Shown here piece by piece: positions 18,111 to 54,179 of a stretch of DNA of 64,000 nt. The stretch lies in the NCBI RefSeq assembly GCF_964204645.1, contig NC_134036.1, positions 10,395,859-10,459,858 of the forward strand, given 5' to 3'. The notes beneath the pieces are model-generated. The model did not search any database and was not told the origin of the DNA. It was given only the letters and a program-made list of their open reading frames with translations. The stretch's first letter is position 1, and the number at the start of each line of letters is the position of its first letter. The translations under genes were made by a program, and so were the position numbers. The DNA comes from Tubulanus polymorphus (lineage: Eukaryota; Animalia; Nemertea).

Positions 18111-19635
18111 ATAATACACTCCGTGTTTCCGTCTCAAAAAACACGTGATCTTGGTACTTTCAACGTATTGGCGGAAGCGCTTGCCCACCAATCATCTGGT
18201 TTAATTGCCAATTCGGCTAGCGCTTGTTCACGTTTGAAATATCTTATGAACTTCGAGAAATTTGGATGATAGGCTCCAATGTTTGACTGGAAGCGACGGT
18301 GCCACCCTTCCACATAGTTATTCGTTCAAAAAATGTCATCGAGTAGTTATAATTCACTTACCAAATCAACGGAAATTCATAGTAAGTCCATTAATTATTG
18401 CATTAGTTAACGTTGACTAATTTATTGGAATTAGTATTACTGTTAAGCCGATCACAAACTTTAAATCAGTACTAGAGTAATTAGCTGTACTATTAAGCTA
18501 CTACAGGAACAAAGGTCCTGTGCTTTCGAGGCACAGTTTTTTTTAAAATATCAATGAAAACATATACACATTGTTCATTCTACTACCCTTTTAATTATGC
18601 AGATCTGTACGCTCTAACAACTGCCTTCAACATTTGTGATCGTGAAGTTAATATCAGTTCATTTTCAACTTTTCATCTTAACTCGGAACTGTGGAACTGG
18701 GTCTACGGGCACTACGGTGACTGGGCGCATCAGACAGTGGTATGCTAGGAACAAATACGTCAGATCGATTATGGCCTGTTACAAAAAGTTCGACTGACCA
18801 ATGCGTATCACTTTCAAGGACTTTTTCATAATAATTGGACGGATAATCACTTAAATGAAAATCTATGATAAAGTTTATTTGGTTCAAAAAAATTTATTGT
18901 ATGCAGTGTGAGACACTGTGTTCTGCCAGCGCGCGCTTGCCTCGCGTATTATGGCTAAGACGCTCCGACCATCTTTTGCATAATATTAGGCGTTGCTTAA
19001 CCCACCACTCGCATGTGTTTATTGGCGCCCCAGTATGAGCATCAATTGTCTGCTAGTGGATAGACACACTTCAACATCCAATCAATATGATTTTTATACA
19101 CAAACCGCCACTGAGAGCTGAATACACGTTGCCTGTCATAGGAACTCAGCACAATACTATAGTCGGGGTAACCAACACTACTGATATATTACATTAGTCT
19201 CGCAATGTTTTTCCACATTATCCTTAATTCGTTTGTACCCGAGGTATCTTACCATTGACAGATCATAATGCTAGTATAACTGTATTTTAAAACAAAGACA
19301 CTTGTATTTATTACAAAAGTATGAGAAAGAACGCGCGGCGTACGTCTATAAGAGTACAGATCCATCCTTGTGAGAATGTAATCACTGTAATCCCGCTATG
19401 GTTTGCCAGCAGCCAATAGGCGACCTTTATAATGGCACGGGTATGATGAAATAAGGAAAACAAATAACTAAAGAATATTGATACACGAATCAATTATATA
19501 CTGATTAATGTATCAATAAATTAGCTGAAATCAGGTTAATTTTCTGAGAGCCTCTTGAAAACTGTTGATCAGAATTAGAGATTCCTCAACTTGCCAAAAT
19601 GCTGACATATCTAATTCAAATTCTAGGAAACGAAA

Positions 19636-20071
19636 ATGCTTGCTTATTTAATGACTCGTGCATCTGCAGTTGTTGTGATAGTGATCAGTGCCGCGGCATT
19701 GGCAGAAGGTGAGTAACAACCTGGAACACAATATAATATTATTTCATATTATTCCATGGATTACAGTAACATTTATCAGTAAACATCTAGCAGCTGTTCA
19801 TAGAATCAACGAAGTAATTTGATGAATTGCATTTCAAAGATAACATTACTTAATAAGTATTAGTAATATTAGTTATAATCATATTCTTACTAAAAATGTA
19901 TTTAATTGACGTACAGTGTTTTGTCATATATCCGGGAGTGGGGGTTCAAAATTCAATTCTTATTGCATACCTTTTTTCGGAAATATAGGTTGCAAGATAC
20001 GAGGCGTAGCTTGTTCTAGCCGTACTAATTACTGTTGCTCTGGCAAATGTACCATCGGAACTTGTTCATAA
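19636..20071 (+). CDS. Secreted knottin (ICK) toxin-like peptide A, 51 aa, 2 exons (19636-19708, 19989-20071)
   Basis: MLAYLMTRASAVVVIVISAAALAE-GCKIRGVACSSRTNYCCSGKCTIGTCS*; phase-1 intron gtgagt...tatag; AATAAA at ~20195. Confidence 0.9.
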
Positions 20072-20578
20072 TCGTCGGTGGTCAGGGTTTATAATCGGGT
20101 ATACTTGTGATGGTTTGGGAAATCCGATTATGAAGCTGAACCACAGTCAGGTTACTGACTGACTACTTCGTGTACGTTAAAGAAGCTCGAATTGAATAAA
20201 ACTGTAAGCAAATAAACATATGATTACTTATCTTTAGCCTAGAGGTTGAATAGATTGTAAAGTGATCAAAAGGACGCTCCGTCCCATTAGCGACGGGGAA
20301 CATCAATTGTCAAACTATTCTCGAATCAATTTGTCATCCATGGTTTACATCAGTTCTCTATTTCTCGTCTTTAAGTTTTATTCACAAATTTTAGTCATGT
20401 TCTTAAAAAACCGATTAATTCGTGTTCTGAGATATGCGACTATTTCTATTAGTGGAGAGATCGACGTTGCACCTGCAGGGCGTCCGCAATTTTAAGAGAC
20501 GAACAACAATTACCGCCATTTGAAGAGACAAACAAAGATTACACATTACGACACAGACACACGGTCTCAGAGGACATA

Positions 20579-29900: not shown

Positions 29901-30572
29901 CACCCAACGCATCAATACCTATAATTCTAAAAGTTCATGTTATAACGTTTAGAATATTCCTCCCTAAGTCAAAACTTTAAATAAAAGACCAGAAGGTAAA
30001 ATTCTCTTCGTTGGACTTTTGGAGGAATCGTTTGAATATCGGACCCCTTGGTCGAGTTTCCATCGATTGACATTGGGAGGAATGTTCCTCCCGAAGTCGA
30101 TACTTTGAATATCAGAACTGAAGGTCAAATTCTCTTCGTTTGACCTTGGGAGGAATATTCCTCCCAAAGTCAATTGTTTGAATACCAGACCCCTTGGTCA
30201 AGTTTCCATCGATTGACTTTGGGAGGAATATTCCTCCCGCAGTCAATTTTCACAATAGCGGTCCTCTTAATTGGTGATGATCAAATGAACGTGCGGCTCA
30301 TATTTCTATTGTGTGCCTATCCGGTGTAACGCGCGACACGCTTACATAATCTTATCTGTAAATGTGAAGACCTCGGGGGCATTATGTTCTCTAAAGCCCG
30401 ACATTATCCCACATTCGGGACTGTGAATGGGTTGATTTTACGGCTGAGTCGACATGTTTCAACAATTTTTAACTGTTCATTTATGAATATTTGAAGACTT
30501 ATGAACTAAAAATTACTTAAATTTTTGATACATTTTGAGAAAGTCACAAAACATTTGAGAGTGCGTTAGAGG
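23991..30572. mobile_element. Large non-coding foldback element with long inverted arms and palindromic subrepeats
   Basis: 23991-24560 is a near-perfect reverse complement of ~30030-30572. Weaker inverted matches continue inward (25030/29650, 25415/29285, 26150/28500). Arrays of the palindrome gactttgggaggaatattcctcccaaagtc. Confidence 0.75.
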
Positions 30573-30957
30573 CAGATGGTCCGCGACAACTAGTGATCCC
30601 CAAAAATATGCGCACCGAAATTCTAGAAGCAGGTCATGATTCAATGACCGGTGGTCACTTGGGACATAAGAGGACCTATGAGACATTAAGAGCTAGGTAT
30701 TATTGGTCGGGTATGTACAAATACGTGGAAAAGTGGATCAAATCTTGTAGAGACTGTGCAACCAAAAATAAGCCGGGAAAGCCCATACGAGCCCCAGTTA
30801 ATCCGATCGCTGTCACTGGACCATGGGACAGGGTCTCAATGGATGTATGTGGTCCATTTCCAACAACTGTTTCAGGGAATAAGTATATTCTAGTTTTTGA
30901 TGATTATCTTACAAAATGGGTCGAAGCATTTGCAAATCAAGAATTAATACCGACAAT
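30573..30957 (+). pseudogene. pol: Gypsy integrase N-terminal half (HHCC zinc domain and first catalytic Asp)
   Basis: GHDSMTGGHLGHKRTY..YYWSGM..CRDC..PWDRVSMDVCGPFPTT.SGNKYILVFDDYLTKWVEAF. Confidence 0.92.
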
Positions 30958-34504: not shown

Positions 34505-36405
34505 GTGGGCGACAAAACCAAAAAAATTAATTGTCGCGGGCGATAAAACCAAAATAATCAATTGACGCGGGCGATAAAACCAAAATAATCAATTGTCGCT
34601 GGCGATAAAACCAAAATATTGAATTGTCGCGGGCGACAAAACCAAAAGAATGAATTGTCGCGGGCGATAACCAAATAATGAATTTTCGCGGGCGACAAAA
34701 CCAAAATATTCAATTGTCGCGGGCTACAAAACCAAACTAATGAATTGTCGCGGGCGATGAAACCAAAATATTGAAGTGTCGCGGGCGATAAAACCAAAAT
34801 AATCAATTGTCGCTGGCGATAAAACCAAAATATTGAATTGTCGCGGGCGACAAAACCAAAAGAATGAATTGTCGCGGGCGATAAAACCAAATAATGAATT
34901 GTCGCGGGTGACAAAACCGAAATATTCAATTGTCGTGGGCAACAAAACCAAACTAATGAATTGTCGCAGGCGATAAAACGAAAATAATAAATTGTCGCAG
35001 GCGATAAAACCAAAAAAATGAATTGTCGCGGATGAAAAAACCAAAATCATGAATTGTCACGGGCGACAAAACCAAAATATTCAATTGTCGCGGGCGACAA
35101 AACCAAACTAATGAATTGTCGCGGGCAATAAAACCAAAATATTGAATTGTCGTAGGCGCCAAATCCAAAAAATGAATTGTCGCGGGCGATAAAACCAAAA
35201 TATTGAAGTGTCGCAGGCGTTAAAACCGCGACAAAAAGAGAAAAAAATTGTCGCGGGTGATAAAACCAAAATAATGAATTGTCGCGGGCGATAAAACCAA
35301 AATATTGAAGTGTCGCAGGCGTTAAAACCGCGACAAAAAGAGAAAAAAATTGTCGCGGGTGATAAAACCAAAATAATGAATTGTCGTGGGCGATAAAACC
35401 AAAATATTGAATTGTCGTGGGCGACAAATCCAAAAAATGAATTGTCGCGGGCGATAAAACCAAAATCTTGAATTGTCGCCATTGTCGCGTGCGACAAAAA
35501 TCCAAATAATGAATTGTCGCGGGCGATAAAACCAAAATAATGAATTGTCGCGGGCGATAAAACCAAAATCTTGAATTGTCGCCATTGTCGCGTGCGACAA
35601 AACCAAAATCTTGAATTGTCGCCATTGTCGTGTGCGACAAAACAAAAATAATGAATATTCGCGGGCGATAAAACCAAAATACTGAATTGTCGCGGGCGAT
35701 AAAACCAAAATAATGAATTGTCGCGGGCGACAAAACCAAAATATTCAATTGTCACGGGCGACAAAACCAAACTAATGAATTGTCGCGGGCGATAAAACCA
35801 AAATCTTGAATTGTCGCCATTGTCGCGTGCGACAAAAATCAAAATAATGAATTGTCGCGGGCGATAAAACCAAAATAATGAATTGTCGCGGGCGATAAAA
35901 CCAAAATATTGAAGTGTCGCAGGCGATAAAACCGCGACAAAAAGAGAAAAAAATTGTCGCGGGCGATAAAACCAAATTAATGAATTGTCGTGGGCGATAA
36001 AACCAAAATATTGAATTGTCGTGGGTGACAAATCCAAAAAATGAATTGTCGCGGGCGATAAAACCAAAATCTTGAATTGTCGCCATTGTCGTGTGCGACA
36101 AAACCAAAATAATGAATTGTTGCGGGCGATAAAACCAAAATAATGAATTGTCGCGGGCGATAAAACCAAAATATTGAATTGTCGTGGGCGACAAATCCAA
36201 AAAATGAATTGTCGCGGGCGATAAAACCAAAATAATGAATTGTCGCGGGCGATAAAACCAAAATATTGTTTTGTCGCGGGTGACAAAACCAAATTAATGA
36301 ATTGTCGCGGGCGATCAAACCAAAATAATGAATTGTCGCGGGCGATAAAACCAAAATAATGAATTGCCGCGGGCAACAAAACCAAAATTATTGTTTTGTC
36401 GCGTT
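34505..36405. repeat. ~31-bp tandem satellite/minisatellite (~1.9 kb)
   Basis: Unit attgtcgcgggcgataaaaccaaaataatga with recurrent variants; no unique spacers. Confidence 0.95.
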
Positions 36406-37930: not shown

Positions 37931-40548
37931 GTTGAGTTTCATCGGTAGAAAATTGAATGTGTCCAAAAACTATATATCCAAATGTGTGACGGTCATAGTC
38001 ATTATTTTCCCGCCGTTTGGTACAATATCTGGTAATATACCTTGTGACACCAAATATTGAAGAATAAAGTAACCGTCAAAGGATTGAAAAAGGCGCGAAA
38101 ACAATGGCGCCCCTATTCTCTTCCGTAAACAACCACTCGCAGAATTCAGAGTCCGTTTTAAACATGTGTTCATGTTTACCGCAATAATCGCAAACCGAGT
38201 CAGGGGTCCGTTTCGACCATTTACACATTTGACATATTCTATGCGCTATACCCAATACTACAACGTGGTTCGATTCCACAGTCGTTGTTTCGAAATCGAA
38301 TGCGATGAACTTTCTATATTTTAGCTCATCGCCAGCCTTGTGGGCATCCAAATACGGGTTAATTAGTGTATGAGGGTTACCCTGTTCCTCAGAAACCACG
38401 TGATCCTGACTTTTGGCGACCCCGATGTAGCAAAGATGGCCGCTAGGCTTTCGCTCTTTACAAGAACTGCAATATTTCTGCCCGCAGTCGTGAGATTTAG
38501 GATCAAGTTTCTTTCTAGATACAATAGACCCGCATTGAAAACATCTCGTTCTCGAATCGCATACGCTTACCCCGTCTGCTCTTGGTCTGCAGTGTCTGGC
38601 TAAACACGCTTCCGATTTAAAATAGATATTGCATTTTATACACAAATAATTTCCCCGTTGTTCTACGCAATCCCCAAAGCAAAGTCTACATTTATCGGTA
38701 CAGCGATGTCGTTCTGTATTCGTATCCCCCTTTTTACAAATGTAGCAATAGTATGAACGACAGGTAGATGAAGCCATCGATGTAATTACATCGAAATGTC
38801 CATCCGTATATAATAATATAAGCTTTTTGGTATTCACACCGTGGTCGTCCAGCACATTGCGATTGTTTTCGTATAAAATGTGATAAGCGATATCATCACC
38901 AGTTACAACAAGTAAGCAGTAATCGGATAATTGTTTCGCAAACGCATCCAATTCGCGCAATCCACACTTGCCTAGGGGCACACCGGCATTCATGTGTAAG
39001 GTAATTGCCGCACCCTTTTGTAATGACCGGTTGCATTTACGAATAACGTCATAACGAGGGTCATTATCCGCACGCGCTTTCGCCACCACTAACGACCTAG
39101 CGAGACACAAATCATCGTCATTATCGATCGAAACAATACATGGTTTGTTTTGTCTAAACGACTCGAAATTTACCTCAACGCGTTTACGATGCGTACCACC
39201 TAGCGGCATTCGAATGAATGTACAATGGAAAATCCAAAGACAAATCCTCATTCGACTGTAGAACACAGATTATTCTATCGAGTATATATTCTACCGTTAG
39301 TTCGTCCAACGGTACGAATGGAAATTCAATGTTTCCATTGAGTTCTGCGTGCTCGATAGATATCCGGATCATGTCATTCGAACGAGCGTCCAACATTTCA
39401 CTTATAGCCGCTAAAACGTCGGTTAGATAGTTCCAGACGGTGGCTTGTGCATCCCGCGCGTCGAGTTGGTCGTTAATCGGGTCCTCATGTGGTATCACGG
39501 TAACCTTGTACAACTCATTTTTCATGTTGAATTTCTTACTGTGTTGTACGCCGTTCTGTAAAATAATGGAAATATTCTTTTTTATTCATTTTGTTCGTCA
39601 TTATGTTAAACGATTTTGATGTATTCGATTACTTACCCTGACCAATTTAATATTGCCCCGTATTATCTCGTCGGGGTTTTCACAGTGAGGGCGCTTCGAA
39701 CACGATACTTCTTCCTCATCATCAATATCGTCAATAGGACGCTTCGATGTTGGGGGCCGTGGCGCGCATACCTCGCTGTGGTTTCTTAACTCGGCGATTG
39801 ATGGGAACGATTCCGAACATCGCGAGCATGTAAACTCCCGTACGGCTGGTGGCGGTGGCGGTGGTGGCTGTGGTAAGACCGATGTCTTTTTAGGCTTACA
39901 TGTTCTCATATGCCTCACCAAGCTATCTTCACGGGATAGCGTTTTTCCGCATTTGTCGCAAGAATGCTATAAAATAGAAAAAAATACCCGGATTATATTT
40001 AAGATGACTAACGGGTTTTAGTAACGCATAATATCACTACTTACAGGTTTAGCATCCGATATGCCAGGTTGCGCGTGTAGTGATACGTGTTTGGCAACGT
40101 ATCCCTTGCACGTTTTGGCGTGTCGCCTCACGTGGTCTTTGCGTGCAAACACCTTGCCACTTGTGACGCATTGACAATCAGAAGTCCCAAAATGGGAACC
40201 CATGTGTCGCGTCAGCGTTTGCTGGTTATCAAAGTTAAGACCGCATATTTTGCAGTCCCATATTTGCTGAAAATAAAAAATAGGTATTTAATAATACGTT
40301 CAACCACATAGTAATTAAATGAACGGTTTTAATCTACTAACCGGATTGACCGAAGCTACAGACGCCTGTTGCTGCATCGGATGGGGTGCCATACAAATGA
40401 CCGTGTGCTGCGTCAAATCGCGCGCACAAGCAAATGCTTTGCAACAGCTTAAGCATTTAAACCCCTTCTTCCCAGCGTGAAGTTGCTGGTGTTGACCCAA
40501 TGCGATTTCATTGGCAAAAGTCAACGGGCAGTATTGGCATGAATACAT
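37925..40548 (-). pseudogene. polB: Protein-primed DNA polymerase B, 5' half, with three spliced upstream exons encoding six C2H2 fingers
   Basis: Exons 40548-40342, 40266-40045, 39966-39637 and 39555 onward joined by phase-0 GT-AG introns. OTU-like DDDLCLARS...GHFDVI, Cys-rich fingers, ExoI FIAFDFETT, ExoII-like FQSFDGYFIL, FLDTFNFLPMKL. Frameshifts; polymerase domain missing. Confidence 0.9.
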
Positions 40549-40624
40549 TTTCTGTAAGAAAAAAAAGATTGAATACGTGTTATTTTTTTAAAAGAGACTA
40601 ATCTTCAGTGTCTACAAGTCAATT

Positions 40625-40921: not shown

Positions 40922-41253
40922 AAAAAGTCAAATAGCGTTTATGAAAACATATTCAAACCTCGAATAACTAAAATCGAAAAATATTCAAACCTCAAATAGG
41001 TAAAATCGAAAAAATAGTCAAACCGTAATTTTAACTAATCTTATTTTGTCAAAACCGTAGTATTTTCCTATTAAAAAAGTGCAAACCATATTTTAGAAAA
41101 CTGAAAATTGTAAGAACCTCGTTTAGTGAAAATAAAGAATTTAGTAAACAATAAAATGCTTGTACTGTATTTTTTAAATATTGACACCCCCTTGTTTCTA
41201 TTAAAAGTGTTTTTCATTCGCAACTAAAACACTGAAAACACTAAAACATTAAG

Positions 41254-41880
41254 ATGGCAGAGTATTATGGCCCGAGATACTTATCCCACCCATTAACAAT
41301 GATAGTCGCGGGACCGACGGGTTCCGGTAAAAGTGTGTTTGTCAAAAAAAGTTATAACGGAGAATCTTGTCGAAAAAAATCCCGATAAGATATATTGGTG
41401 TTACGCGGAGGCACAACCCGAAATGTTCAATGAATTGGAAAAGTTTGGAGTGCAGTTTGTAGAGGGTTTTTCTGGAGAACTCTACGACAAAATAGATGGC
41501 AGTAAACGTACATTAATTATAGTCGACGATCTGATGAATGAAGTAGGGAGTAATAACGCGTTAGCTTCTTTGTACACACGAGGATCCCATCATCGCAACA
41601 TCAGCGTTATTACGATTGTACAAAATATTTTCCCGAAAGGCAAAGAGTTTAGAACGATTAGTTTAAACTCACATTATATTGCCGTTTTTAAAAACGCGCG
41701 AGATAGAAATCAAGTTCGCGTTCTCGCTCAACAAGCCGGTTTGAAAAACGAAATAAAAGCGGCCTTTAGAGACGCGACCATGGAACCCCACGGTTATCTT
41801 TTACTGGATTTTAAACCGAAAACTGATGATAGATGGGCTTGAGAACTAGAATTTTTCCTAGCGATAAATACCATATAATA
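41254..41880 (+). pseudogene. Polinton A32-like packaging ATPase (frameshift after Walker A)
   Basis: MIVAGPTGSGK (41254 frame), Walker B LIIVDDLM, GSHHRNISV, RTISLNSHYI, KNARD. Confidence 0.93.
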
Positions 41881-41940
41881 TAAAAAACAAAGAAAATCCA
41901 TTAAAAGTATAATTCATCGGTTAACTATTAATAGAAGAAA

Positions 41941-42324: not shown

Positions 42325-42995
42325 AGGACGTTGAAAAGTTAATCATTTTACCCGATTCTATGTTACCCTCGATACAAGCTTTTATCGCGAGTCAGGAGCG
42401 TCGACAAGAAAAAGAAACACCCGCTACCTACAACCCTCTAACGGATAACAAAATACCCGACGATCTCAAATACTTAAAGTATAATCAGTTATTGCAGCAA
42501 GAAATACATAAATCGTCTACAGAAAAGGACATTAACCAAACGACACAAGATATTAAAGAAATCTCGGGCAAATATACTACGCAGAAAATTATTGATCGGT
42601 TACCGTTAAGATTTAGGAAAAAATGTAAATCCCTATTAGCATTTTTTGAAAATAATCCAGGAATTTTGAAATGGAATGATAAAGGCGAACTGATTTACAA
42701 GGACAATCTAATTCGTGGAAGCAACAACGACGATATTTTACACATGTCGTTAGTACAAACTAAAATGGATCAAGAATATATCGGCCTAGATAAATATATA
42801 TCTGCATTTAACGAGTTGAACGTACCATTGAGTCTTATTTCGAATAAAACGTTAAAGAGAAGTATTGAACTTACCGTAGATTTAGATACGTCGTTGTCTC
42901 CAAAGAGAAAGAAACCAAAGTATGATCAGAGCGGATCCGGACTGTGTGGAGTGCGGGATGGCAATGTGAATTTCGCAAACTGGTTATCCTTTTAA
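42321..42995 (+). CDS. Conserved Polinton protein of unknown function
   Basis: WNDKGELIYKDNLIRGSN motif, ATGA overlap with the previous ORF, NLS-like PKRKKPK. Confidence 0.7.
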   Translation: MKDVEKLIILPDSMLPSIQAFIASQERRQEKETPATYNPLTDNKIPDDLKYLKYNQLLQQEIHKSSTEKDINQTTQDIKEISGKYTTQKIIDRLPLRFRKKCKSLLAFFENNPGILKWNDKGELIYKDNLIRGSNNDDILHMSLVQTKMDQEYIGLDKYISAFNELNVPLSLISNKTLKRSIELTVDLDTSLSPKRKKPKYDQSGSGLCGVRDGNVNFANWLSF

Positions 42996-43185
42996 CGACT
43001 AGATAACCTAATCACGACTGTCAAAAATCTTTGACCAATGACCGGGCTTCATTCGTGGCGTATTGATATGATATATGCGGGCTTCATTATTCGTGTTTGG
43101 GCATGTCAACGGTCAGCGGGTTTTGCAATTATATCATTAGTGGAATGGATATAGCAGTTTCATTTGTGGTCGAGCAGGCACGTTA

Positions 43186-43658
43186 ATGATGATCGCGATT
43201 GTAAACGTTGTATCTACGGCGCATTTGAATTGCCGTTTAAACCTAACCGATATTGCGAGAAAATTATGTAATGTCGTTTATGACCCCCGAAAGTTTAGCG
43301 GATTGATGTGGAAACATAGAAGTATACAAGGTAGCTAGCTGTCTATTGTTCGTAAATGGAAATTCGCCAGTTGATACAAAGGATGGGATACACGGGGAAC
43401 TTGAATAACTTCAAAATACAAACTATGACTGGAGTCGCAAAAATCGGTCGACGCGTAGACCTAGTGGAACTTTCCAAAACAGTTGACGGCGATTATAATC
43501 CTGAAATATTTCCCGGTTTTGTGTACAAATGTGAAAACGGAATAAAATTTATAGTACATAACGGTGGTACTTTAATATTGTCGGGTGCCAAAAAACTCAA
43601 CGATTTACAGGACGCCTACGAAGAAATTCTATTTTATGCCATTCTTTGTTCCAAATAA
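43186..43658 (+). pseudogene. TATA-binding-protein (TBP)-like protein carried by the Polinton
   Basis: Repeat 1 IVNVVSTAHLNCRLNLTDIARKLCNVVYDPRKFSGL; repeat 2 FKIQTMTG..VDLVEL..YNPEIFPGFVYK..FIVHNGGTLILSGAK. A 4-bp duplication (agct, ~43333) and a small deletion disrupt repeat 1. Confidence 0.85.
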
Positions 43659-43707
43659 AAAAGTCATTAAAAGCATATTGATTTAAGTGTAAATAAAATA
43701 TATAAAA

Positions 43708-43923
43708 ATGAATTGGCGAAAGTCGTTTTGTTGTTGTTTGAAGCAGGAGGAGCCGAATTTCGAGTGCCGTTTCGATCGAGTTAATTGCGTATTAAGCACG
43801 TGTTGTGGTAGCACAACTGTGATCGATGAAAGCCGAACAGAAAAGATTCCTGGCGAATCAATATTATGGCGTCGACAAAGAAGGAAGTTTTTCAAACGCA
43901 AATACATTACTACGGATTTGTAA
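43708..43923 (+). CDS. Small Cys-clustered Polinton ORF overlapping the integrase start
   Basis: MNWRKSFCCCLK...STCCGS; good ATG context. Confidence 0.35.
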   Translation: MNWRKSFCCCLKQEEPNFECRFDRVNCVLSTCCGSTTVIDESRTEKIPGESILWRRQRRKFFKRKYITTDL

Positions 43924-44904
43924 AAAAGAAAAAAGAAATATCTCTTTACGGGATATACGAGACTGGTTGACCGACCAAGAAGTTTACACTTTACACGCCA
44001 AAGTACGAAAAGATTTCCAAGAAACAAAACTATAGCCTATCGAGTAAACGAACAATTTCAGGTCGACTTGTGCGACGTTTCGAATATTTCGAAACACAAT
44101 GACGGTTACAAATTTCTATTGACGGCTATTGATGTATTGTCTAGATACGCGTTCGCTATACCGTTAGAGAATAAATTTAATTCTACCGTTGTGGATGGAT
44201 TTAAAAAGGTTTTCAAAATTAGAAAACCTAACGTAATCCAATCGGAATCTGGCACAGAGTTTATCGGATCAAAAACGCAGACGTATCTGAGAAATGAAGG
44301 CGTACGTTTTTTCCAAAGTAAAAACGAAGTAAAATGCGCTTTAATCGAAAGATGGATACGTACTTTAAAATCGAAAATGTATAAGATATTTTCGCATAGA
44401 AATTCATACAGGTACATCGATCTACTTAAAGATATAGTAGCGTCGTACAACAAATCGTTTCATCGTAGTATAAAAATGACTCCAAATGATGTTAACGAGT
44501 TAAACGCGTACGAAGTTTTCAAGAATCTATACGGCACAAGTAGTAAAAAACGCGTACAATTTAAGTTTCGCGTTGGCGACACTGTTCGAGTAAGCGAACT
44601 CAAAGGTCAATTCCAAAAAGGCTATTTACCCGGTTGGAGTACTGAGTTGTTTGTCGTTACGAAAATAATTATGCGTGAGCCACCTATATACAAGATTAAA
44701 GATTTACAAGACGTAACAATAGATGGCGTGTTTTATGGTTACGAGTTGATAAAATTCAATAAAAAGGATGAAACGTATAAGATCGAGTCGATAATTAAAA
44801 CTCGAGGTAAAGGCGCTCGAAAACAATACTCGGTAAAGTGGTATAACTATCCCGATAAATTCAATTCTTGGGTGAACGCTCGAGATATCAAGACATTACC
44901 ATGA
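43826..44904 (+). pseudogene. Polinton rve (c-)integrase with C-terminal chromodomain, frameshift near 44030
   Basis: WLTDQEVYTLH, QVDLCD, IDVLSRYA, SESGTEF, ERWIRTLK, YNKSFHRSIKMTP, FRVGDTVR, KGYLPGWSTELF; chromo YKIESII..YSVKWYNYPDKFNSWV. Confidence 0.95.
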
Positions 44905-45706
44905 GTCAGGATTTTTACGTGTATCTCAAAAGCGATGCTAGCGTAGACATTTATCCCGATAATACGCAACATAGTTTTAAAGTTCGATTACGAACACCGA
45001 TTTCACTTCAAGGCAAATGAACTTTATGGCAGATTTCAATAACGTGAACAATGGTAGATTTCAATGTACGTCGTCTGAGCAAGGAACTCATTATCTCAAT
45101 ATACCCGAAGGTCGTTATTTGACAATTACCCAATTAATTGTTGCTATACAAACAGAGTTAAACAAATGGTAGGATAATAAGATAGTTCTTGCATTCAATG
45201 AACTAAGTCATAAAGTTTGTATCCGATTTTATGACAACTGCACAATAACTTTTACGAGTGATATTGCGTGGATTTTGGGTTTTAAAGAAAATATACCGAT
45301 TAACGAAGATATAACAGATCATCGTCAAGGCTCTAAAATACATGGTCCTATACTGTCAGATTCATCCGATAGTAAAACAGTTTACAAACACATCGAGGTT
45401 ACTGCAACCCGCAGTTCGGATATAAACGTCGATTATCATAATTTAATGATATATACAGATGTTATCGAACCTCAGCTGGTCGGACATGAAATCGCAAAAC
45501 TCTTGCGCATGATTGATTTGAATCCGAGAAATTTTGGTAAAATTGTTGGTCGAGAATTTACCAAGTTACAATACTTCCCACTACAGAGACGGAATTTCCA
45601 AACTATAGAAGTCTTTATAAGAACTGAATCCGGGAGAATCCCCGTGTTCAGAAAAGGAAAAGTTAACTTAGCTTTACATTTTAAAAAGAAGAATTTATTG
45701 CTATGA
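44901..45706 (+). pseudogene. Minor capsid (penton, PX) protein, disrupted
   Basis: MSQDFYVYLKSDASVDIYPDNTQHSFKVRL at the start; IYTDVIEPQLVG..LLRMI..YFPLQRRNFQTIEV..LHF at the end; internal stops and frameshifts. Confidence 0.88.
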
Positions 45707-46113
45707 GGGCTCTCTGCGAAATCGATCGGGATGCTTGTAAATATTACATGAACCAATGCGGTTCGGGTATTGATGTATATACGGCGTCTCCCGTACAAGG
45801 CGGTGCAGGCTTTGCATCAGTCTTGGGAGGGCTGGCTCGACCAGCTATTCCACTACTAAAAAATATGGCTAAGCAAGCGGTTCATCATTTACTGAGAACG
45901 GGTCTACACGTAGCTAGCGATGTGGTAGGCGGAAAGAATATCGCGACAGCCCTCAAAGATCGTGGCATCGAAACAATGGGTCGCATTATCAGACGAAGCT
46001 TAAAAAGACCATCTACCTCAACCCCAAAATCAATAAAAGGTCGTAAACGACGTAGGCGTATAACAACCGGAAAACGTGTACGAAAAACCAAAGCAACCGC
46101 TGAAGCGTACTAA
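45703..46113 (+). CDS. Polinton core/virion protein (QxGxG motifs, amphipathic helix, Arg-rich tail)
   Basis: YYMNQCGSG..VQGGAGFASVLGGLARPAIPLLK..RKRRRR; lies between penton and MCP. Confidence 0.8.
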   Translation: MRALCEIDRDACKYYMNQCGSGIDVYTASPVQGGAGFASVLGGLARPAIPLLKNMAKQAVHHLLRTGLHVASDVVGGKNIATALKDRGIETMGRIIRRSLKRPSTSTPKSIKGRKRRRRITTGKRVRKTKATAEAY

Positions 46114-46115
46114 TT

Positions 46116-47416
46116 ATGTCGTTATTAGTACATAAGGATTCGCCATTTTGCGTCAAGTCTGAACTCGATCTGTTTACAGTTCCCGGAACACAGATAAATT
46201 TCAAGCGTATGAGCGTATGAGCCTACTACATCGATTAACGATATGGGACCGATTGTATTCAGAGTACCGAAAACTGAACAATATTTAGATTTAAACGTCA
46301 CGTATTTAAAACTACAGTTTAAAATAGTTAACGCCGATGGAACTAATGTGGGTCCTGAAAAGTCTGTCTCAATGATCAATGGCGCCTATAGTCTATTTAG
46401 CGATGTACAAATTATGCTTAATGACCGAGTAGTTACCCACGACGGTGGATTATACCCGTTCAAGTGTGAACCTGAAAATATGGTTAATTACAACTCGGAA
46501 ACTAAAAACAACAGCTGGCTACAATGCGATCTTTATGCCGAAGACGAAGCCGGAAAAAAGTCAAATATCGATCCTACTTTACCAAACGCGAATTCTGGTT
46601 TGGTCAGAAGGAATAACTACACTAAAGGCAGTAAAATGGTTTGCGCTTATTCTCGCTTGTAAAGCGATGTAATGAGAATGAATAAGATTTTCTTCAACAA
46701 TACAGATTTACAAATAAAACTAACTCGATCAAAGGAAAGTTTTGCTCTAGTTTCCCCCGCCGAAAACCGATTTTCGTATAAAGATTGAAAGCGCTCAACT
46801 ATACATTCGTAAACTAGAACTGGATAGTTCTGTTTTAGTAGCGCATGCTAAAGCAATGGAAAAGAATACAGCAAAATATTATTTTTCGAGAACTGAATTA
46901 TTATCGTTGTATATTCCAAGAGGTCATAGAACAATTATCAAGGACTCCGTTTTCGTCGGCGAGATACCAAAGGCTATTGTTTTAGCTTTAGTGGACGACG
47001 ACGCGTTGAGCGGTAATTACAAAAAGAATCCGTTCAATTTCAAGGATTATTCATTGAATTATATAGGGGTGACCATTGATAATGTCCATGCACAAAACTC
47101 GCCGTTAATTATAGACTCTCGTGGCGACGGTTGCGAAGTGTATCACGGTTTATATTTAGCCCGGGGCTTATTGTATAAAAACGAAGGAATTGGGATAAAA
47201 CGTGAGGATTTCAAAAATGGTAATTTTATTTGTGGATTCAATATATCGCCAGAGTATGGGGATCAAACGCATCTGTCACTAATTAAAAAGGGGTCAATAA
47301 AAATCGAAATGCGATTTGATGAAGCTTTACCGCATAACGTGAATTTGATTGTTTACGCCGTTTTCGACGAATTACTACAAGTCACTAAAGAACGTCATAT
47401 AGAGATCGATTATTAA
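46116..47416 (+). pseudogene. Major capsid protein (double jelly roll, PY), frameshifted
   Basis: MSLLVHKDSPFCVKSELDLFTVPGTQ, GPIVF, YLDL, SLFSDVQI, GEIPKAIV, GNYKKNPFNFKDY; split over several ORFs. Confidence 0.93.
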
Positions 47417-47421
47417 CGACC

Positions 47422-47886
47422 ATGTTGTACACAAACCAAATTTTAGAGTTTATGAAAAAAGACGAATGTCTGAAAGCGTTTTTCGTTGGTGTGTTCCCAT
47501 GTGACGGACTACCGAATATAACGCGTTATCCAGCTGGTTTTATAGTAAACACTGATAATCACGATGAGCCCGGCGAACACTGGTTAGCTGTATATATAAA
47601 CGAATACGGATTTGGTTATTTTTTTGATTCCTTCGGACAATTACCCCGAACTTATGATATAATGTTAGAAAAATACTTGGATGAAAATTGTATAGACTGG
47701 AAATATAATAGTAAGATGTATCAAAATGTATTATCCGATGTATGTGGTTATTACGCTATATTTGTACTATTACACCTATGTCACGGTAACGATGTACGCG
47801 ATATTACGAAACTATTGTCAAACAAAACTACTGATAATGATTATTTTGTAAAAAAATTCATCGTGAAATATTTTAAGCTTCTATAA
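47422..47886 (+). CDS. Adenain-like cysteine maturation protease (intact)
   Basis: NTDNHDEPGEHW, YFFDSFG, YQNVLSDVCGYY (His-Asp-Gln-Cys set). Confidence 0.93.
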   Translation: MLYTNQILEFMKKDECLKAFFVGVFPCDGLPNITRYPAGFIVNTDNHDEPGEHWLAVYINEYGFGYFFDSFGQLPRTYDIMLEKYLDENCIDWKYNSKMYQNVLSDVCGYYAIFVLLHLCHGNDVRDITKLLSNKTTDNDYFVKKFIVKYFKLL

Positions 47887-48062: not shown

Positions 48063-48456
48063 TCAGTGTCCGAGTTCGTCGTCGTCGTATTCTTCGGCAG
48101 TGTTGTCATCAACATCATCGACGTTGCTGCTGCTGTTGTTGCCGTCTCTGGTGACGGCGGCGCCGGTTTCGTCGCATTCTCTGTTCTTCTTTGCGTATAT
48201 GCCCCGCAAACATACGTGCCCAGCGCACAACATTTCTGCAGAGTGGGCACAAAAATACATCATTAGCGTCTTCACGCCCCAGTTCAAGGTTTCTTCGTAT
48301 TATGGTGGAGACGCAGCTTCCACACGTCAAGTTTCTGTATTGACACTGGCTACATAGTAGCCAGCACCGCTGACCGGACGTGAAGCATATGCCGCACTCG
48401 AGCACTGCATCGGCATCATCCGGTATCTCAAACCAACGTGCTCCAATCACAGACAT
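48063..48456 (-). CDS. RING-finger-like protein (possible E3 ligase), acidic tail probably via frameshift
   Basis: CGIC-x10-CSQC-x6-CGSC-x21-CPLCR; overlapping frame ends in DVDDNTAEEYDDDE. Confidence 0.6.
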
Positions 48457-49306
48457 GTTGGAAATGATTTGTCCTAAAACTACCCCCTTATTTATGGGTC
48501 TAAGTCAGACGACTAATTAGTTGATTAATTCTTATAGTCTAACAGTTTACTCAAAGTATTTGAGGATTCTATCACATATTATTAACGGTGTTTTTGATAC
48601 TCTGGTCTATTATCACCCAGCATATAAGACCATCTGTTCGGTTTTATCTAAACAACTTAATTACCTCAGCGCTATGAGCACTAAAATGTTCGAATTATTG
48701 CTAGTGTAATTGGTTTGAAACCTCACACCTATTTTCCCATCGCGGACGTGTCTCCGATCTAAATCACTTAATTGCCTTCGTCTTCCACATATAATTAACG
48801 GTGTTTGGATACTATCGACCCATATGCTTCTGGTAATTGGTTTTGCTCACACCTATTTTCCCCAATCGTGGTCGTGTATTGATCTAAATCAATTAATTGC
48901 CTTCTTTGTCGGTATATCGTATCATGGGTCTGGATAGCAACGAAATGCTAGATTAACGTATTGTTAAATCAGAATGATTCAAAAATGAAATCTTTTATTC
49001 AATTAATGTTTTATTTAGTCCTAAAAACATAAATATTTTTATAAATATTGTAGATAAACATAGGTCATATACCTATACACGAAAAAACCATAAATTTCAT
49101 AAAAGATAGAAACTCACTACTTTAGTTAATCCTCTTTGGTTAGAGCGGATCTTAATGAAGTCCTGGATTAGTCATTTCGGATACTTATTTCTATCTAAGA
49201 GTTTAACGCAAACTAACGTATATAAATTGATGTATTTTTTTTACACATTTTGTTGTTCGGTTATGATATAAATATTATCTAATTAATATCTTTTAAACTA
49301 CTTTAA

Positions 49307-50130
49307 TTATACTTGGGTGATCATTACACCGTATTCAGGTGTTTTTCGTACTCCAGAAGTGTCTTTTGCGCAGTACGGACACCTGTATTCCTGATTCGAG
49401 TGACTGGAATCATACCAACAGGGCGTCATGTTGGCTAGTTCGGGTATATCGTCATTGAAATTAATGTCTTTCAATTTTTTCCATTGTTCCAATGTTAGTT
49501 TCCGCATCTAGTCGGAGAAACAGTGAGAGGTTCATCGAATAGATCGTATTTTCGGATATCTACGTAAATACGATGATCGTGACTAGACCTATATATTTTG
49601 ATAAAGTTCGTACGACCAACAGTCATTACACCCACGTATTCGATATCTTCTTTAACGCGCGCAATTTCGTGTTCGATATCGGCTTTACAATAATCTATAT
49701 GCACCCACTCTTGGAGATCGAGCGAAATACCGTTTTTAGTGGGATACAGTTGTTTTCTTCGTTCACAACACTCGTACGACCGTAAATCTACACGTTTTAC
49801 CCCCTGCCACGTTTTCGCACTCGCGTAAACAAGAGATCCTAGATAATGGGGTTCGGGGTCATTGTTCCAGGTGTTACGCAAGTTCGCACTTTTCGACGGG
49901 CCGGCGACAGCGTTGTCATTAACGATCGAACCTAAAAGAACAATAAAATATCATATATCAGTATACGTATGTCTTAATATTTGACGGTTTCGAATACGGG
50001 AAATAAGTAGAAACTTACTAAAGTCGAGTTTCAGCGAGGGGTGTTTTCTTTTTCTAGATTGAAGCGATGACTTTGCTTTAACTGGTGTATTAGATATTTC
50101 TAAAATACTTTGTCCGCTGGCCGAATCCAT
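49307..50130 (-). pseudogene. Tandem PC4/Sub1 (transcriptional coactivator, ssDNA-binding) domain protein, 2 exons, one frameshift
   Basis: Exon 50130-50019, phase-1 intron, exon from 49931. LGSLVYASAKTWQGVKRVDLRSY..YPTKNGISLDLQEW and second repeat IYVDIRKY..SPTRCG/KLTLEQWKKL match PC4 (IDIREY..PGRKGISL..EQW). Confidence 0.85.
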
Positions 50131-50533
50131 TATTACGATGATGTTGTATGATGTTGACGGTTCAAAGTCTCTGAGCAGAATGACTAAATTATGGATTTGC
50201 AACGCGTTTTTATTGTCAGAAATGACTTGCCCGAACTCGTTTTATGGTTTTACGTGTTGTTACGAAATATGTTCGCCTAAACTTGTCTATGATTTCACAA
50301 TAGCCGTCAAAAGAAGCCATCTTGGATTTTACCCCGCTCCCCTCTCTATACACGCTCTCGCATAGGATTATGTAATCATGGCGTCATCTAGGATGACGTC
50401 ACTCGCTTACACACGTACACACAAACGCACGCATGCGCACGCATCTGTATAGGATTACGGACTAGCGCCATCTAGGATTCAACTGCGCACTCGCTTTGTT
50501 TACACTCGCATAAACGAGACGTGATTTACGAAA

Positions 50534-51073
50534 ATGTCTGGCGATTTTTTTACCGTGGAAAACATTTTCCTAACAAAATCAACTACCACGGAACATGAAA
50601 TAAATCATGTCGACTTTGAAGATATCGACTGGTCTACCGGATTTGCGATTTGCAAATATTGTAATACGACAATTACATACGGTAGTTTTCGAGTAACGAC
50701 GTGTTGCAGGAAACCGATTTGTGAAGATTGCTGGCTAGTGAACGCTCGATGGTTAGGCGTTCAACATGATTTCGAATGTCCTATCGAGAATTGCATGGTA
50801 CATTTTAGGATTATCAAACATATCGCGAAAAAAGACTGTTATCGTTGTCACGCGCAAGAGGATTTGCTTCATTGTTGTGATAAAACTATATGCCGGCCCT
50901 GTTTAAGCGAACTTAAAACGTATGAAGGGTATGAAGAAAACTTTTGTTATTACTGCATAACTTTATTTTGTGGCATCAACACGTGTTTAGTGTGTTTGGA
51001 AATAACTAAACAAAAGACAGACTGCTGCGACGCTTATATTCACGTCTCGTGCGCCAAGGAATTCGGATTTTAA
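50534..51073 (+). CDS. Cys-rich protein with three RING-like repeats
   Basis: CKYC..CCRKPICEDC..CPIENC; CYRC..CCDKTICRPC..CYYC; CLVC..CCDAYIHVSC. Confidence 0.6.
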   Translation: MSGDFFTVENIFLTKSTTTEHEINHVDFEDIDWSTGFAICKYCNTTITYGSFRVTTCCRKPICEDCWLVNARWLGVQHDFECPIENCMVHFRIIKHIAKKDCYRCHAQEDLLHCCDKTICRPCLSELKTYEGYEENFCYYCITLFCGINTCLVCLEITKQKTDCCDAYIHVSCAKEFGF

Positions 51074-51439: not shown

Positions 51440-51522
51440 CACTTCCGGCCGCCATCTTGGATGACGTCACTACCGGCCGCCATCTTGGATGACGTCACTT
51501 CCGGCCGCCATCTTGGATGACG
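51440..51522. promoter_or_regulatory. Subterminal 28-bp triplicated motif (ETS + YY1 + CRE sites)
   Basis: acttccggccgccatcttggatgacgtc x3: CCGGAAGT and AAGATGGCGG on the minus strand, plus TGACGTCA. Confidence 0.7.
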
Positions 51523-52228
51523 ATTTGACAATTTGTTGCCACCCTCGTTATTTTATTATACAGTTGCAGGGATACTGGTACCCCCATCATTGGTCTCATC
51601 CATTATCAATCGTGAAAAGCCCCTGTGCATAAACCGTGATAAACAAGTTTGGAATAACATTCACATAGTTTAGTTATGATATTGTCAAACGTTTCTTACC
51701 GGCAAATTAGAATCTCATTTAGAATCTATCACATAGATAGATCAAGTAATCGGTTTTTTGAAAACCACGTTTATCGTGTGATTCTTTCGTCATCTTTGAT
51801 AGGAATAGTCGCACATATCTGACCATGAATCGATCGGTTTTTTTCAAGAAAATGACTATAATATGTGAATAACAGTTAAAAACGAGAGATGATGTAAATC
51901 AGGGAAGACAAATTGATTTGAGAAAATTTGTAAGGCGATTGATGTTTCTTGTCGCTAATGGAACGGCGCATCCTATTGATCACTTAACAATCCTCATTTA
52001 CCCTCGAAAGATAAACAATCATTTGTTTATTTGCTCACAGATGTATTGAATGTTAATATAACACACGATTTTACGTCTAAATATTTACATTCTAAAAATT
52101 TACATTCAATTCGAGCTTTTTAGCGAACGCGATCTAGTCAGTCAGTTACCTGACTGTGGTTCAGTTTCATAATCGGATTTCCCAAACCATCACAAGTATA
52201 TCCCATTAGAATCTCTTATCGCCAACGA

Positions 52229-52726
52229 TTACGAACAAGTTCCGATGGTACAATTGCCAGTGCAACAATCAGTATCACCCGTACAAACTACGCCTCGTAT
52301 CTTGCAACCTATATTTCGTAAAAAAGAGTATGCAATCAAACACGGAATTTCGAGGTAAGGCAATTTTTCATTTACATTGTAGGTATAATTGAACCCCCAC
52401 TCCCGGATGTATGACAAACAAATCAATACATGAGTTTAGGAAATACATTTACGTATGAAACATATTACACGTCAATGAAGTAGATTTTTGTCAGAATATA
52501 ATTATTGATATGTAATATTATCTTCGAAATGTAATTCGTCAAATTACTTCGTTAAATCTATAAACAGCTGCTGAATGTTTACTGAAAAGTGTAATTTCAA
52601 TTCATTGAATCATATGAAATTATGTATTATGTTCCAGGTCGTTCGTTACTCACTTTCTGCAAATGACGCGTCGCTGATCACTATCACAACGATAGCAGAT
52701 ACACGAGTCATTAAATAAGCAAGCAT
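52229..52726 (-). CDS. Secreted knottin (ICK) toxin-like peptide B, 50 aa, 2 exons (52726-52654, 52308-52229)
   Basis: MLAYLMTRVSAIVVIVISDASFAE-SCKIRGVVCTGDTDCCTGNCTIGTCS*; same phase-1 intron as A. Confidence 0.9.
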
Positions 52727-54179
52727 TTTCGATGCCTAGAATTTCAATTAAATATATTAGCATTGTGGGCAATCCCAAATTCTGATTATTCAACAGTTTT
52801 CAAAAGGCTATCATCAAATAAACCTGTTTTCAGAAAATTTACTAGTTTAGAATGATGAGGCTTGAGAAAAAAACAGTGCCTTTAGATCTCGCGCGTGCTG
52901 GGCTTTATATGTGATATACAAAGTCGGTAGCGTACCACAGGTCTACGGGTCCACTTGTCCGATGGACCACTAGTCCGGAGGTTCACTAGAACACATTTGT
53001 TGGTACACTAGGCCGGGGCCTAATAATGTGACAGGGATAATATTTACTATTGGTCTGTCAGTGGTCATGCGTGAACTGTGGTCAGTTAAACCATTACATG
53101 TCCAGTGCTACCGGTATTCGACGTTTGACAACTCATATAGAAACGTTTCTGCTATCAATGGAAGCATGGTTCAACACACAACAGACATACCTTTCAGTCG
53201 CGTTGTGCGCAGCAGTAACAGTAACTGAGTGCAGCCGTAGTGATAAAACTCCTTTAAGAATTGGCACAAACTGGCTATTTAAGATACAGCCACCAAACTT
53301 GTATCATATAAAAGCCACTTGTCTTTTCCGTTAAAAACTGTTTTCATTGGTGTTCTATCCTAATCATCCTTATATAAGCTGTCAAGCTTGTAAAAACCAG
53401 CTGCCCAAATGCACTTTTTCCTCCGATACATAGTAAAATGGCTCTGACTTGAAAAGTTTATAAGCAGAAAGCAGCGCCATTATTTTCATTATCAATTGAA
53501 GTTAAGTATCCAACGAAAGCAGACAACCTGGGGAACATTAATTATATTTTTGCGAGGATTTAACAATGAATAAAGGTAGTGAAGTCGATTTAGGTGCAAA
53601 ACACGGCAAATTTCACAATGGAGAATAGCGCGTTACAACATCGTAGCAGTAACGTTTCCATATGCAGTTGACCGAAAACGGGTTGTGATCGTTGGAGATT
53701 CATTTGGGCACACTGCCTTAGCAATGGTCATTAGTAACTTACCGACCACTGAACAGCTAGTCATGCCGCTAAAAACTTTCCAGGACAGAGGCCACTTCTC
53801 AGCCCTTTCAACACACCAGTGACCAAAAGTTAGCACAGTGACCACCCAGTTTAGAGAGAAATAAAAACGTTTTTTTTTTCTCCTACTCGTCATAATTTCT
53901 TCAATCGATGTACGTAACAATATTCTATAGTTTTTTGTTCTCTTCATTTCACATTACCTGTGCCTAGCTGCAAACCATAGCGAGAAAATGTGATTACGTC
54001 GAGAAGAAACACAGTATCCGTGTATGATGAATTACGAGAGAAATAAAATAAATTCAGCCAAAAATAAACATTTCTATGTAATAAAATCCAGGCATACTGA
54101 TACATATTACTTACTACATATTCCTAAACGATATGCCACGTCGATGAACAATTATATCACCCAGTTGCCATCACGGCGC

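Follow-up and report, generated by a model that had tools for sequence, protein, structure and literature searches.

A decayed Polinton of the nemertean Tubulanus polymorphus carries a compact TATA-binding-protein gene with a possible role in recognition of the element's own promoters

The window analysed here, a 64,000-nucleotide stretch of the Tubulanus polymorphus genome (contig NC_134036.1, positions 10,395,859 to 10,459,858 of the forward strand), holds a Polinton element in which a gene for a TATA-binding protein (TBP) lies between conserved Polinton open reading frames (ORFs) and the integrase. Translation of positions 43186-43658 on the plus strand gave both repeats of one TBP core, read across three frames, and the TBP-like peptides quoted in an initial annotation made from the letters alone were present where it had placed them. 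Frame 1 (43186-43335) translates as MMIAIVNVVSTAHLNCRLNLTDIARKLCNVVYDPRKFSGLMWKHRSIQGS and is followed by a stop, because a 4-letter duplication shifts the frame. The short frame 2 piece, CLLFVNG, lines up with CLLF.NGK of the family members in alignment A1 of the window's nearest relatives, and frame 3 is open over 43356-43658 (100 aa), reading FKIQTMTG..YNPEIFPGFVYK..GTLILSGAK. The coordinates of the three pieces, of the breaks between them and of the other features of the element are collected in Table 1.

Both long pieces scored above the curated cut-off of the Pfam TBP family PF00352 (22.9 bits): piece 1 with 40.3 bits (E 2.8e-10, profile positions 2-47 of 85) and piece 3 with 44.9 bits (E 1e-11, positions 1-79 of 85), which bears out the two-repeat TBP-like core claimed in the initial annotation, a claim that it would have given up had no TBP profile matched. 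Among solved structures piece 1 matched 35 chains (best E 9.1e-10), all named as TBP or TBP fusion except one that was unnamed, and piece 3 matched 37 distinct sequences at E<=0.01, including 35 TBPs (best 1tbp_A, E 8.6e-14); two protein A matches of piece 3 were rejected as spurious. Word-based protein searches with the 100-aa piece 3 returned 72 candidates in the longer variant, none of which passed, and no candidates in the near variant. A HMMER search of the same piece against 1.84 billion representative proteins gave 1056 matches at E<=1e-3, the best of them, P0001, with 39% identity and E 8.2e-23. The homology of both window repeats to TBP is far beyond chance.

The state of the gene in sibling copies of the same species was followed in raw whole-genome reads (run X4) and Logan contigs from runs X1-X3, mapped on positions 42900-44000 at an identity of at least 80%. 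At 43332, 20 of the 34 X4 reads lacked the four duplicated letters, as did contigs from each of X1-X3, so that the initial annotation's 4-bp duplication shifting the frame ahead of CLLFVNG was confirmed both in the letters and in the reads; a second lesion, of 56 letters, had been overlooked. At this second break the joint 43362->43371 was found in 11 X4 reads and in contigs of X1-X3, and a second sibling variant, with 73 letters against 17 in the window (joint 43359->43377), in contigs of X1 and X2. The sequence missing from the window corresponds approximately to repeat 1's last strand together with most of its helix 2 (about 19 codons), and in alignment A1 the window has a gap opposite the family rows at this place. 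From the start codon to piece 3 there are 170 letters in the window; removal of the 4 and addition of the 56 letters (170-4+56) makes 222 letters or 74 codons, and the siblings are therefore in frame across both breaks. The window copy of the TBP gene is a pseudogene with two lesions, a dead fossil.

Altogether 345 X4 reads were mapped, with 68, 102, 115 and 60 of them in the identity classes of 99% and above, 95-99%, 90-95% and below 90%, respectively, and the read depth over the TBP gene was similar to that over both flanks. This even depth, together with the spread of the reads from above 99% to below 90% identity, indicates that the TBP gene is present in the family copies of this species. 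Inside the coding pieces 19 sibling differences were listed, 10 synonymous and 9 nonsynonymous, corresponding to a pN/pS of about 0.24 (binomial p 0.0025), a rough value that was obtained from the 40 best-supported of 167 difference rows with transition bias ignored; between the window and its intact relative described below, where the protein identity is 43-44%, synonymous sites have reached saturation. A different joint, 43027/43819, which skips 791 letters (43028-43818) with the whole TBP gene, was seen in short X2 and X3 contigs and in one X4 read. It has only 28-29 letters on one side, which is too weak for a claim of TBP-less siblings, and may represent either a sibling deletion derivative or an artefact.

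The initial annotation had proposed a search for intact siblings with conserved gene order. A metagenome scan with P0001 produced such a relative, L001 (SMVA01025879.1, 7486 nt), together with L002 (2913 nt), which encodes an identical TBP; a third locus from the same scan, L003, gave a weak 30-residue match. Viral contigs of IMG/VR scanned with the window piece, P0001, P0004 and the L001 capsid protein contained no confirmed relative. The gene order in L001 is zinc finger (minus strand), ATPase, 125-aa ORF, 257-aa ORF, TBP, integrase, 247-aa ORF, 133-aa ORF, 440-aa capsid and protease, with ORFs intact throughout except for the Walker-A N-terminus of the ATPase, which is out of frame. All ten L001 proteins were colinear with the window, at 26-84% identity per aligned segment and 32-67% in the main segments, and the position of the TBP gene is therefore fixed in two lineages of this Polinton group. 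The placement of the gene between conserved Polinton ORFs and the integrase, noted from the window in the initial annotation, was thus the same in both, the intact 176-aa TBP of L001 stands in a colinear block, and the window's siblings are in frame across its lesions. No intron is needed for the L001 gene, in agreement with the gene having been described as intronless. Its presence, intact, at the same place in L001 marks the gene as one of the Polinton lineage and excludes a host retrocopy; the initial annotation had named a recent retrocopy private to this copy as the outcome that would overturn it, and the gene was found both in the same-species siblings and in L001. By the identities in Table 1, the TBP gene evolves faster than the core genes, yet it is open in the intact L001.

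The L001 TBP, taken from an internal Met (176 aa) with a 57-row alignment, was predicted by AlphaFold2 as a two-repeat saddle with a pLDDT of 97.3 and a pTM of 0.87. In Foldseek the model matched the human TBP core 1cdw_A with a TM score of 0.95, an rmsd of 1.1 A over 174 columns and 35% identity, and the next matches were all TBPs; its sequence gave 121.1 bits against PF00352 in two stretches (E 1.7e-35). The TBP saddle is a ten-stranded sheet topped by four helices. The window copy is unable to form it, because about 19 codons of repeat 1 are missing.

The profile of alignment A1 recovered 1618 proteins at E<=1e-10. Among the best 120 of these matches, 98 were compact proteins of 161-206 aa (median 172) lacking the second-repeat motif QN[IMLV]V, and 22 were canonical TBPs. 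Some of the compact members come from bivalve records (Mercenaria 'TBP-like 1', Crassostrea virginica 'TBP 2-like', Pinctada), and the 90% cluster of the Crassostrea virginica 'TBP 2-like' protein has 34 member sequences. The comparison with canonical TBPs that the initial annotation had suggested was made in a maximum-likelihood tree of 58 rows, in which 47 compact rows, including the window and L001, were split from the canonical TBPs with 99% SH-aLRT support; four other divergent rows fell outside the compact clade, on the canonical side of this branch, and the window was sister to L001 with 87% support. This split and the identity of only about 35% between the L001 protein and solved cellular TBPs show that the gene is not a recent host capture.

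Residues at the DNA and TFIIB contacts were counted in the 46 compact rows of alignment A2, with yeast numbering and with roles which we take to be those of the yeast positions. In repeat 1, N69 and V71 are kept in 45/46 and 45/46 rows, and the intercalating F99 and F116 in 40/46 and 43/46. In repeat 2, N159 is replaced by Thr in all 46 rows and also in the window (FKIQTMTG), and V161 by Thr or Ser in all 46; F190 is kept in 44/46, and position 207 has F in 22 rows, H in 16 and other residues in 8, with His in both the window and L001. The symmetric minor-groove Asn pair of canonical TBP was thus not found in the compact rows, N69 being kept and N159 being Thr. In the C-terminal stirrup, E188 is kept in 45/46, position 189 has Leu in 39 rows and Ile in 6 (Ile in the window and L001) and E186 is kept in 39/46, with Asn in the window and L001, whose stirrup reads N-P-E-I-F. 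Of the four intercalating Phe residues, a check of which was proposed in the initial annotation, three are kept in the window and L001 (..RKF.., ..LLF.., ..EIF..), the fourth being His. By its residues the protein is a true TBP homologue with one canonical and one rewired half.

The block on this strand has four sites with non-coding DNA before a start codon, namely those of the ATPase, the 125/127-aa ORF, TBP and a small Cys-rich ORF between TBP and the integrase, and a search for a shared box was made in eight 70-nt upstream stretches from the two elements. The commonest 8-mer was ATTAAAAG, present in 5/8 stretches, and its shorter form TTAAAAG was present in 6/8, 33-54 nt ahead of the ATG, the two exceptions being the stretches of the TBP genes of the window and L001. 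None of the other permutations of the same composition (168 in all) occurred in more than 2/8 stretches. In the whole window ATTAAAAG occurs 14 times against 7.3 expected, a count reached in 0 of 100 shuffles, and in L001 4 times against 0.74 expected, reached in 3 of 200 shuffles. In L001 the box at 3096 precedes by 46 nt the ATG (3142) that is homologous to the one of the Cys-rich ORF, and TTTAAAAG stands 48 and 14 nt before the homologue of the 127-aa ORF. Compared with the adenovirus major-late-type TATAAAAG, only the first two letters of ATTAAAAG differ. No ATTAAAAG was found before the minus-strand zinc-finger or polymerase ORFs of the window. Boxes of the TATAAGA/TAAGA type were not placed before genes: TATAAGA had no match in L001 and three plus-strand matches in the block, all within coding sequence. 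Between the two TBP genes, the upstream regions gave no convincing alignment. CCAAT-type strings 5' of the TBP genes (GACCAATGA at 43035-43039 in the window, GATTGGTCAAT at about 2370-2390 in L001), which are taken as a lead only, could belong to a host-type promoter.

Table 1. Features of the window's Polinton, with protein identity to the homologues in L001.
Feature	Position	Strand	Identity to L001 (%)	Remarks
TBP piece 1	43186..43335	+	43 (TBP residues 32-82)	frame 1; first half of repeat 1 with the start codon (S1, helix 1, first stirrup)
TBP piece 2	43340..43362	+		frame 2; CLLFVNG, strand with second intercalating Phe of repeat 1
TBP piece 3	43371..43658	+	44 (TBP residues 111-208)	frame 3; end of helix 2, whole repeat 2, stop codon
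First break	43333..43340	+		AGCT AGCT, 4-letter tandem duplication, frame shift
Second break	43363..43370	+		8 letters against 64 in siblings, 56 short; second frame shift
ATTAAAAG box	41200..41207	+		54 nt before ATG of ATPase N-terminus (41254); in L001 33 nt before homologous ATG (435)
ATTAAAAG box	41900..41907	+		41 nt before ATG of 127-aa ORF (41941)
ATTAAAAG box	43666..43673	+		just 3' of TBP stop; 42 nt before ATG 43708 (Cys-rich ORF, then integrase/capsid block)
Candidate N-terminal fragment of protein-primed DNA polymerase B	38076..39269	-		IAFDFETT motif by eye; remainder fragmented, interrupted
C2H2 zinc-finger ORFs	39601..40587	-	26-40	adjoin ATPase gene; 40% identical to, and same position as, L001 2-253 (-)
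Packaging-ATPase gene	41254..41842	+	67	Walker-A N-terminus (GPTGSGKS) out of frame with main ORF 41306-41842
Conserved Polinton ORF, 127 aa	41941..42324	+	60 (L001 1134-1511)	homologue of 125-aa ORF
Conserved Polinton ORF, 224 aa	42321..42995	+	32 (L001 1527-2300)	homologue of 257-aa ORF; directly 5' of TBP gene
Small Cys-rich ORF	43708-43923	+	30 over 54 residues (L001 3142-3501)	E 3e-7 in a single comparison; between TBP and integrase, overlaps integrase start in another frame
Integrase, rve core and chromodomain	43826..44904	+	50-61 (window frames 2 and 1)	two frames
Conserved ORF after integrase, candidate minor capsid/penton	44904..45706	+	38-84 (L001 4366-5109)	homologue of 247-aa ORF; two frames
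Conserved small basic ORF	45703..46113	+	44 (L001 5106-5507)	homologue of 133-aa ORF
Major capsid gene, candidate double jelly-roll type	46116..47416	+	59-64 (L001 5515-6837; window frames 3, 1, 2)	three frames
Adenovirus/Ulp1-type cysteine protease	47422..47886	+	54	
Candidate left terminal inverted repeat	19517..20449	.		pairs with reverse complement of 51799-52841
Candidate right terminal inverted repeat	51799..52841	.		pairs with 19517-20449

The genes around TBP were assigned by Pfam and by comparison with L001. The window integrase matched rve with E 1.6e-7 and 32.0 bits, just below the cut-off of 32.6, and Chromo with E 3.7e-7, and the L001 integrase exceeded the rve cut-off with 38.1 bits. 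The protease gave 21.1 bits for Peptidase_C5 (E 2.7e-4, cut-off 21.3) and 21.1 bits for Peptidase_C48 (E 3.2e-4, cut-off 20.7). The L001 ATPase had a weak match to Pox_A32 (E 0.0012), below the curated cut-off. No Pfam match was obtained for the 127-aa and 224-aa ORFs, the ORF at 44904..45706 and the capsid protein; as a lead only, the nearest Atlas clusters of the L001 capsid protein are 'F54H12.2-like', and 14-30% of the members of these clusters carry PF21738 DJR-like_dom. The ORF at 38076..39269, with no Pfam match at E<=0.1 and no PDB match at E<=1, is a candidate for polymerase B by its exonuclease-type motifs, and L001 does not extend to this gene. The zinc-finger ORFs matched zf-C2H2 (E 1.1e-9) and may encode a second element-borne DNA-binding regulator.

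Decay concerns the whole window element beyond the TBP gene: the integrase and the ORF after it are each spread over two frames and the capsid over three, the N-terminus of the ATPase is out of frame and the polymerase is fragmented. In the window (41254-41460) as in L001 (468-700), a frame shift at the same spot separates the Walker-A part of the ATPase from the rest of the gene. The two shifts differ in sign, and in the window this spot is a run of seven A; a sequencing error, recoding or two independent lesions are possible. Polintons have inverted repeats at their termini and are flanked by a target-site duplication of 6 bp. The candidate terminal repeats of the window, found by local alignment, have 776 matches and 126 mismatches (86% identity without gaps), measure about 0.93-1.04 kb and enclose 33 kb; no target-site duplication was seen at their ends.

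Several other features were observed between these repeats. A tandem array at 34507-36403 (1.9 kb), with 59 copies of a 31-nt unit at 79% matches, lies where the polymerase gene should continue and creates long spurious ORFs. Two inverted repeats of about 0.5 kb (23984-24516 and 30046-30579), 96% complementary and 5.5-6 kb apart, contain internal 73-nt repeats and are adjoined by an ORF (30539-30973) with the retroelement-type zinc-binding domain Integrase_H2C2 (E 1.2e-22); all of this probably represents further mobile elements lying within the Polinton. On the right-hand side, inside the candidate repeat-bounded element, a minus-strand ORF at 49495-49950 has a PC4 domain (transcriptional coactivator p15, ssDNA-binding; Pfam E 3.5e-8), and L001 stops short of the homologous region. 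Cys-rich, RING- or zinc-finger-like ORFs with faint Pfam matches (E 0.03-0.06) lie between the protease and the right repeat at 48115-48504 (minus strand) and 50525-51073 (plus strand), and three copies of a 28-nt tandem repeat (51440-51522, 96% matches) near the inner edge of the right repeat.

The element protein has several properties in common with the cellular TBP core (human 1cdw), including the two tandem repeats, the saddle (in the L001 model), the first-repeat Asn and Val, both first-repeat Phe and the E-(L/I)-F stirrup. In contrast to cellular TBP, it consists of the core only (about 175 aa), without an N-terminal region and with about 35% identity, it has the exchanges of the second-repeat Asn and Val and the variable fourth Phe described above, and it is encoded by a multi-copy, virus-like mobile element. 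TBPL1/TRF2 is likewise a compact, core-only TBP, and two family members were automatically named 'TBP-like 1'; however, TRF2 is not known to have the intercalating Phe or to bind TATA, while the element TBP keeps three of the four, which speaks against its membership in TRF2. Large nucleocytoplasmic DNA viruses and mirusviruses also encode TBP homologues, so that a virus-encoded TBP-family protein is common to them and the Polinton. The genomes of these viruses measure hundreds of kilobases and also encode an RNA polymerase or a large number of transcription factors, in contrast to the Polinton element with about 15-20 kb of core genes and no RNA polymerase of its own.

In mid-size viruses with both PolB and an integrase there is one published parallel: the legend of Fig. 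5 in Starrett et al. 2021 uses the gene label 'TBP' (for resemblance to TATA-binding proteins) for MELD viruses with adintovirus-like PolB (PMC8502044), which, like the window element, thus carry a TBP-like gene in a PolB-plus-integrase virus or element. The label was applied in non-animal datasets, and the legend names no position, sequence features, family or promoter, so that the two may or may not be of the same lineage. The view of the initial annotation that TBP is not a canonical Polinton gene was fair, although this label was already in print; beyond it, no description of a Polinton or adintovirus TBP gene was found in the full-text literature outside subscription journals. The window and L001 together are a new divergent member, with a QTMT-type second repeat and the ATTAAAAG box, of a barely described kind.

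For the role proposed below, the closest functional analogue would be the TBP mimic of beta- and gamma-herpesviruses (KSHV ORF24, EBV BcRF1, HCMV UL87), which acts at TATT-type late promoters and recruits host Pol II (PMC7498053, PMC4893493). These mimics are large, recognised only by structural similarity to TBP and part of a six-protein viral pre-initiation complex. In contrast, the Polinton protein is a true sequence homologue of TBP of minimal size with no known partners, and the two are likened by function alone.

The sequence comparisons support the gene's identity and its ownership by the element much as first read in the initial annotation. Its further suggestion, a private promoter-recognition factor for late genes, is one that we infer from the TTAAAAG box and the family-wide change of the DNA face. 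On balance, we consider it probable, by a modest degree, that the locus is a frame-broken dead copy of a compact Polinton TBP which, when intact, forms a saddle of about 175 residues that binds the element's own boxes and recruits host TFIIB and Pol II. In such a mechanism the box-less TBP gene would be the first to be expressed, from a promoter of the host type. The resulting protein would then contact the TTAAAAG boxes with both of its repeats, the first canonical and the second re-tuned, the changed second repeat reading the changed 5' end of ATTAAAAG. The bound protein would bend the DNA and hold host TFIIB by the retained stirrup (E-L/I-F), and host RNA polymerase II would thereby be brought to the packaging ATPase, the two ORFs and the integrase-capsid-protease unit. 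A wider generalization, which we put forward with considerable doubt, is that animal Polintons use a private one-protein promoter code, in which the rewired second repeat (Asn to Thr, Val to Thr/Ser, variable fourth Phe) co-evolved with lineage-specific TATA variants; with boxes at the packaging, integrase and capsid units and none at TBP, this would constitute an early-to-late Pol II switch.

A number of points weigh against this promoter-recognition role. Polinton gene context was established for two lineages, namely the window with its siblings and L001, and the bivalve-annotated and metagenomic compact TBPs are known as proteins only. The pN/pS estimate is rough, as stated above, and no RNA run was listed in the sequencing-run look-up for the stretch. 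On the protein side, the TFIIB-contact stirrup of the window and L001 has Asn in place of E186, and the fourth intercalating Phe is variable across the family and His in these two, so that its loss could weaken DNA kinking and not retune it. On the DNA side, eight upstream stretches are a small basis for box statistics, and the canonical-looking ATATAAAA occurs in 3/8 of them, abutting the ATG in two; host TBP may well bind TTAAAAG too. The orientation of the protein on the box, with the C-terminal repeat and its Phe pair on the 5' end, is carried over from TBP-DNA crystal structures. Intercalation of Phe occurs at both ends of a TBP-bound box (PMC10886972).

Among other explanations, the element TBP could be a competitor or decoy that binds host TATA boxes or soaks up TFIIB, TFIIA or NC2-type partners and thereby damps or reshapes host transcription. 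The retained saddle fold with the stirrup residues E188, L/I189 and F190, the canonical DNA-contact residues of the first repeat and the core-only form without N-terminal extension (median 172 aa) are what such a protein would show, but the exchanges of N159 to T and V161 to T/S in 46/46 rows point to selection for a different reading of DNA and not to simple mimicry, and a common non-canonical box stands ahead of the element's own genes; we regard this explanation as unlikely. Still less probable is an architectural DNA-bending protein that serves replication, integration or packaging, for example at the terminal repeats, with no role in transcription. TBP-fold proteins do bend DNA sharply (PMC10886972) and the gene has packaging-side ORFs on one side and the integrase on the other; this function would, however, leave the retained TFIIB-contact stirrup unexplained (E188 in 45/46 rows, L or I at 189 in 45/46), and the box is found at promoter-like distances from start codons and not in the candidate terminal repeats.

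The annotation of some members as bivalve host genes ('TATA-box-binding protein-like 1', 'TBP 2-like') would fit a host paralogue family that was occasionally captured by Polintons without acquiring a role. We give this very little weight, as two Polinton lineages with an identity of only 54-67% between their core proteins have the gene at one and the same position, the window species has it in multiple copies at a depth equal to that of the flanking element genes, and the Crassostrea 90% cluster with its 34 sequences is as expected of a repeat. A recent retrocopy of host TBP, or a random insert, private to one element copy has the lack of introns in its favour and nothing more; it is refuted, with hardly any probability left to it, by the siblings and L001 carrying the gene at the same place, by the identity of about 35% between the L001 protein and solved cellular TBPs and by the separate clade with 99% SH-aLRT.

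Several groups of eukaryotic DNA viruses are regarded as descendants of Polintons (Mavericks, adintoviruses), and we know of no account of the timing of gene expression in these elements. A minimal TBP encoded by the element itself, with an altered DNA-reading face and a box to match, would provide a simple and testable mechanism of such timing and, if true, this would be a second, independent case in which viruses have re-tooled TBP as a marker of late promoters. The fossil in the window has its value as a lineage marker and, together with L001, as evidence of a conserved position. For invertebrate genomes in general, many of the genes annotated as 'TBP-like' may be repeat-borne viral genes and not host transcription factors.

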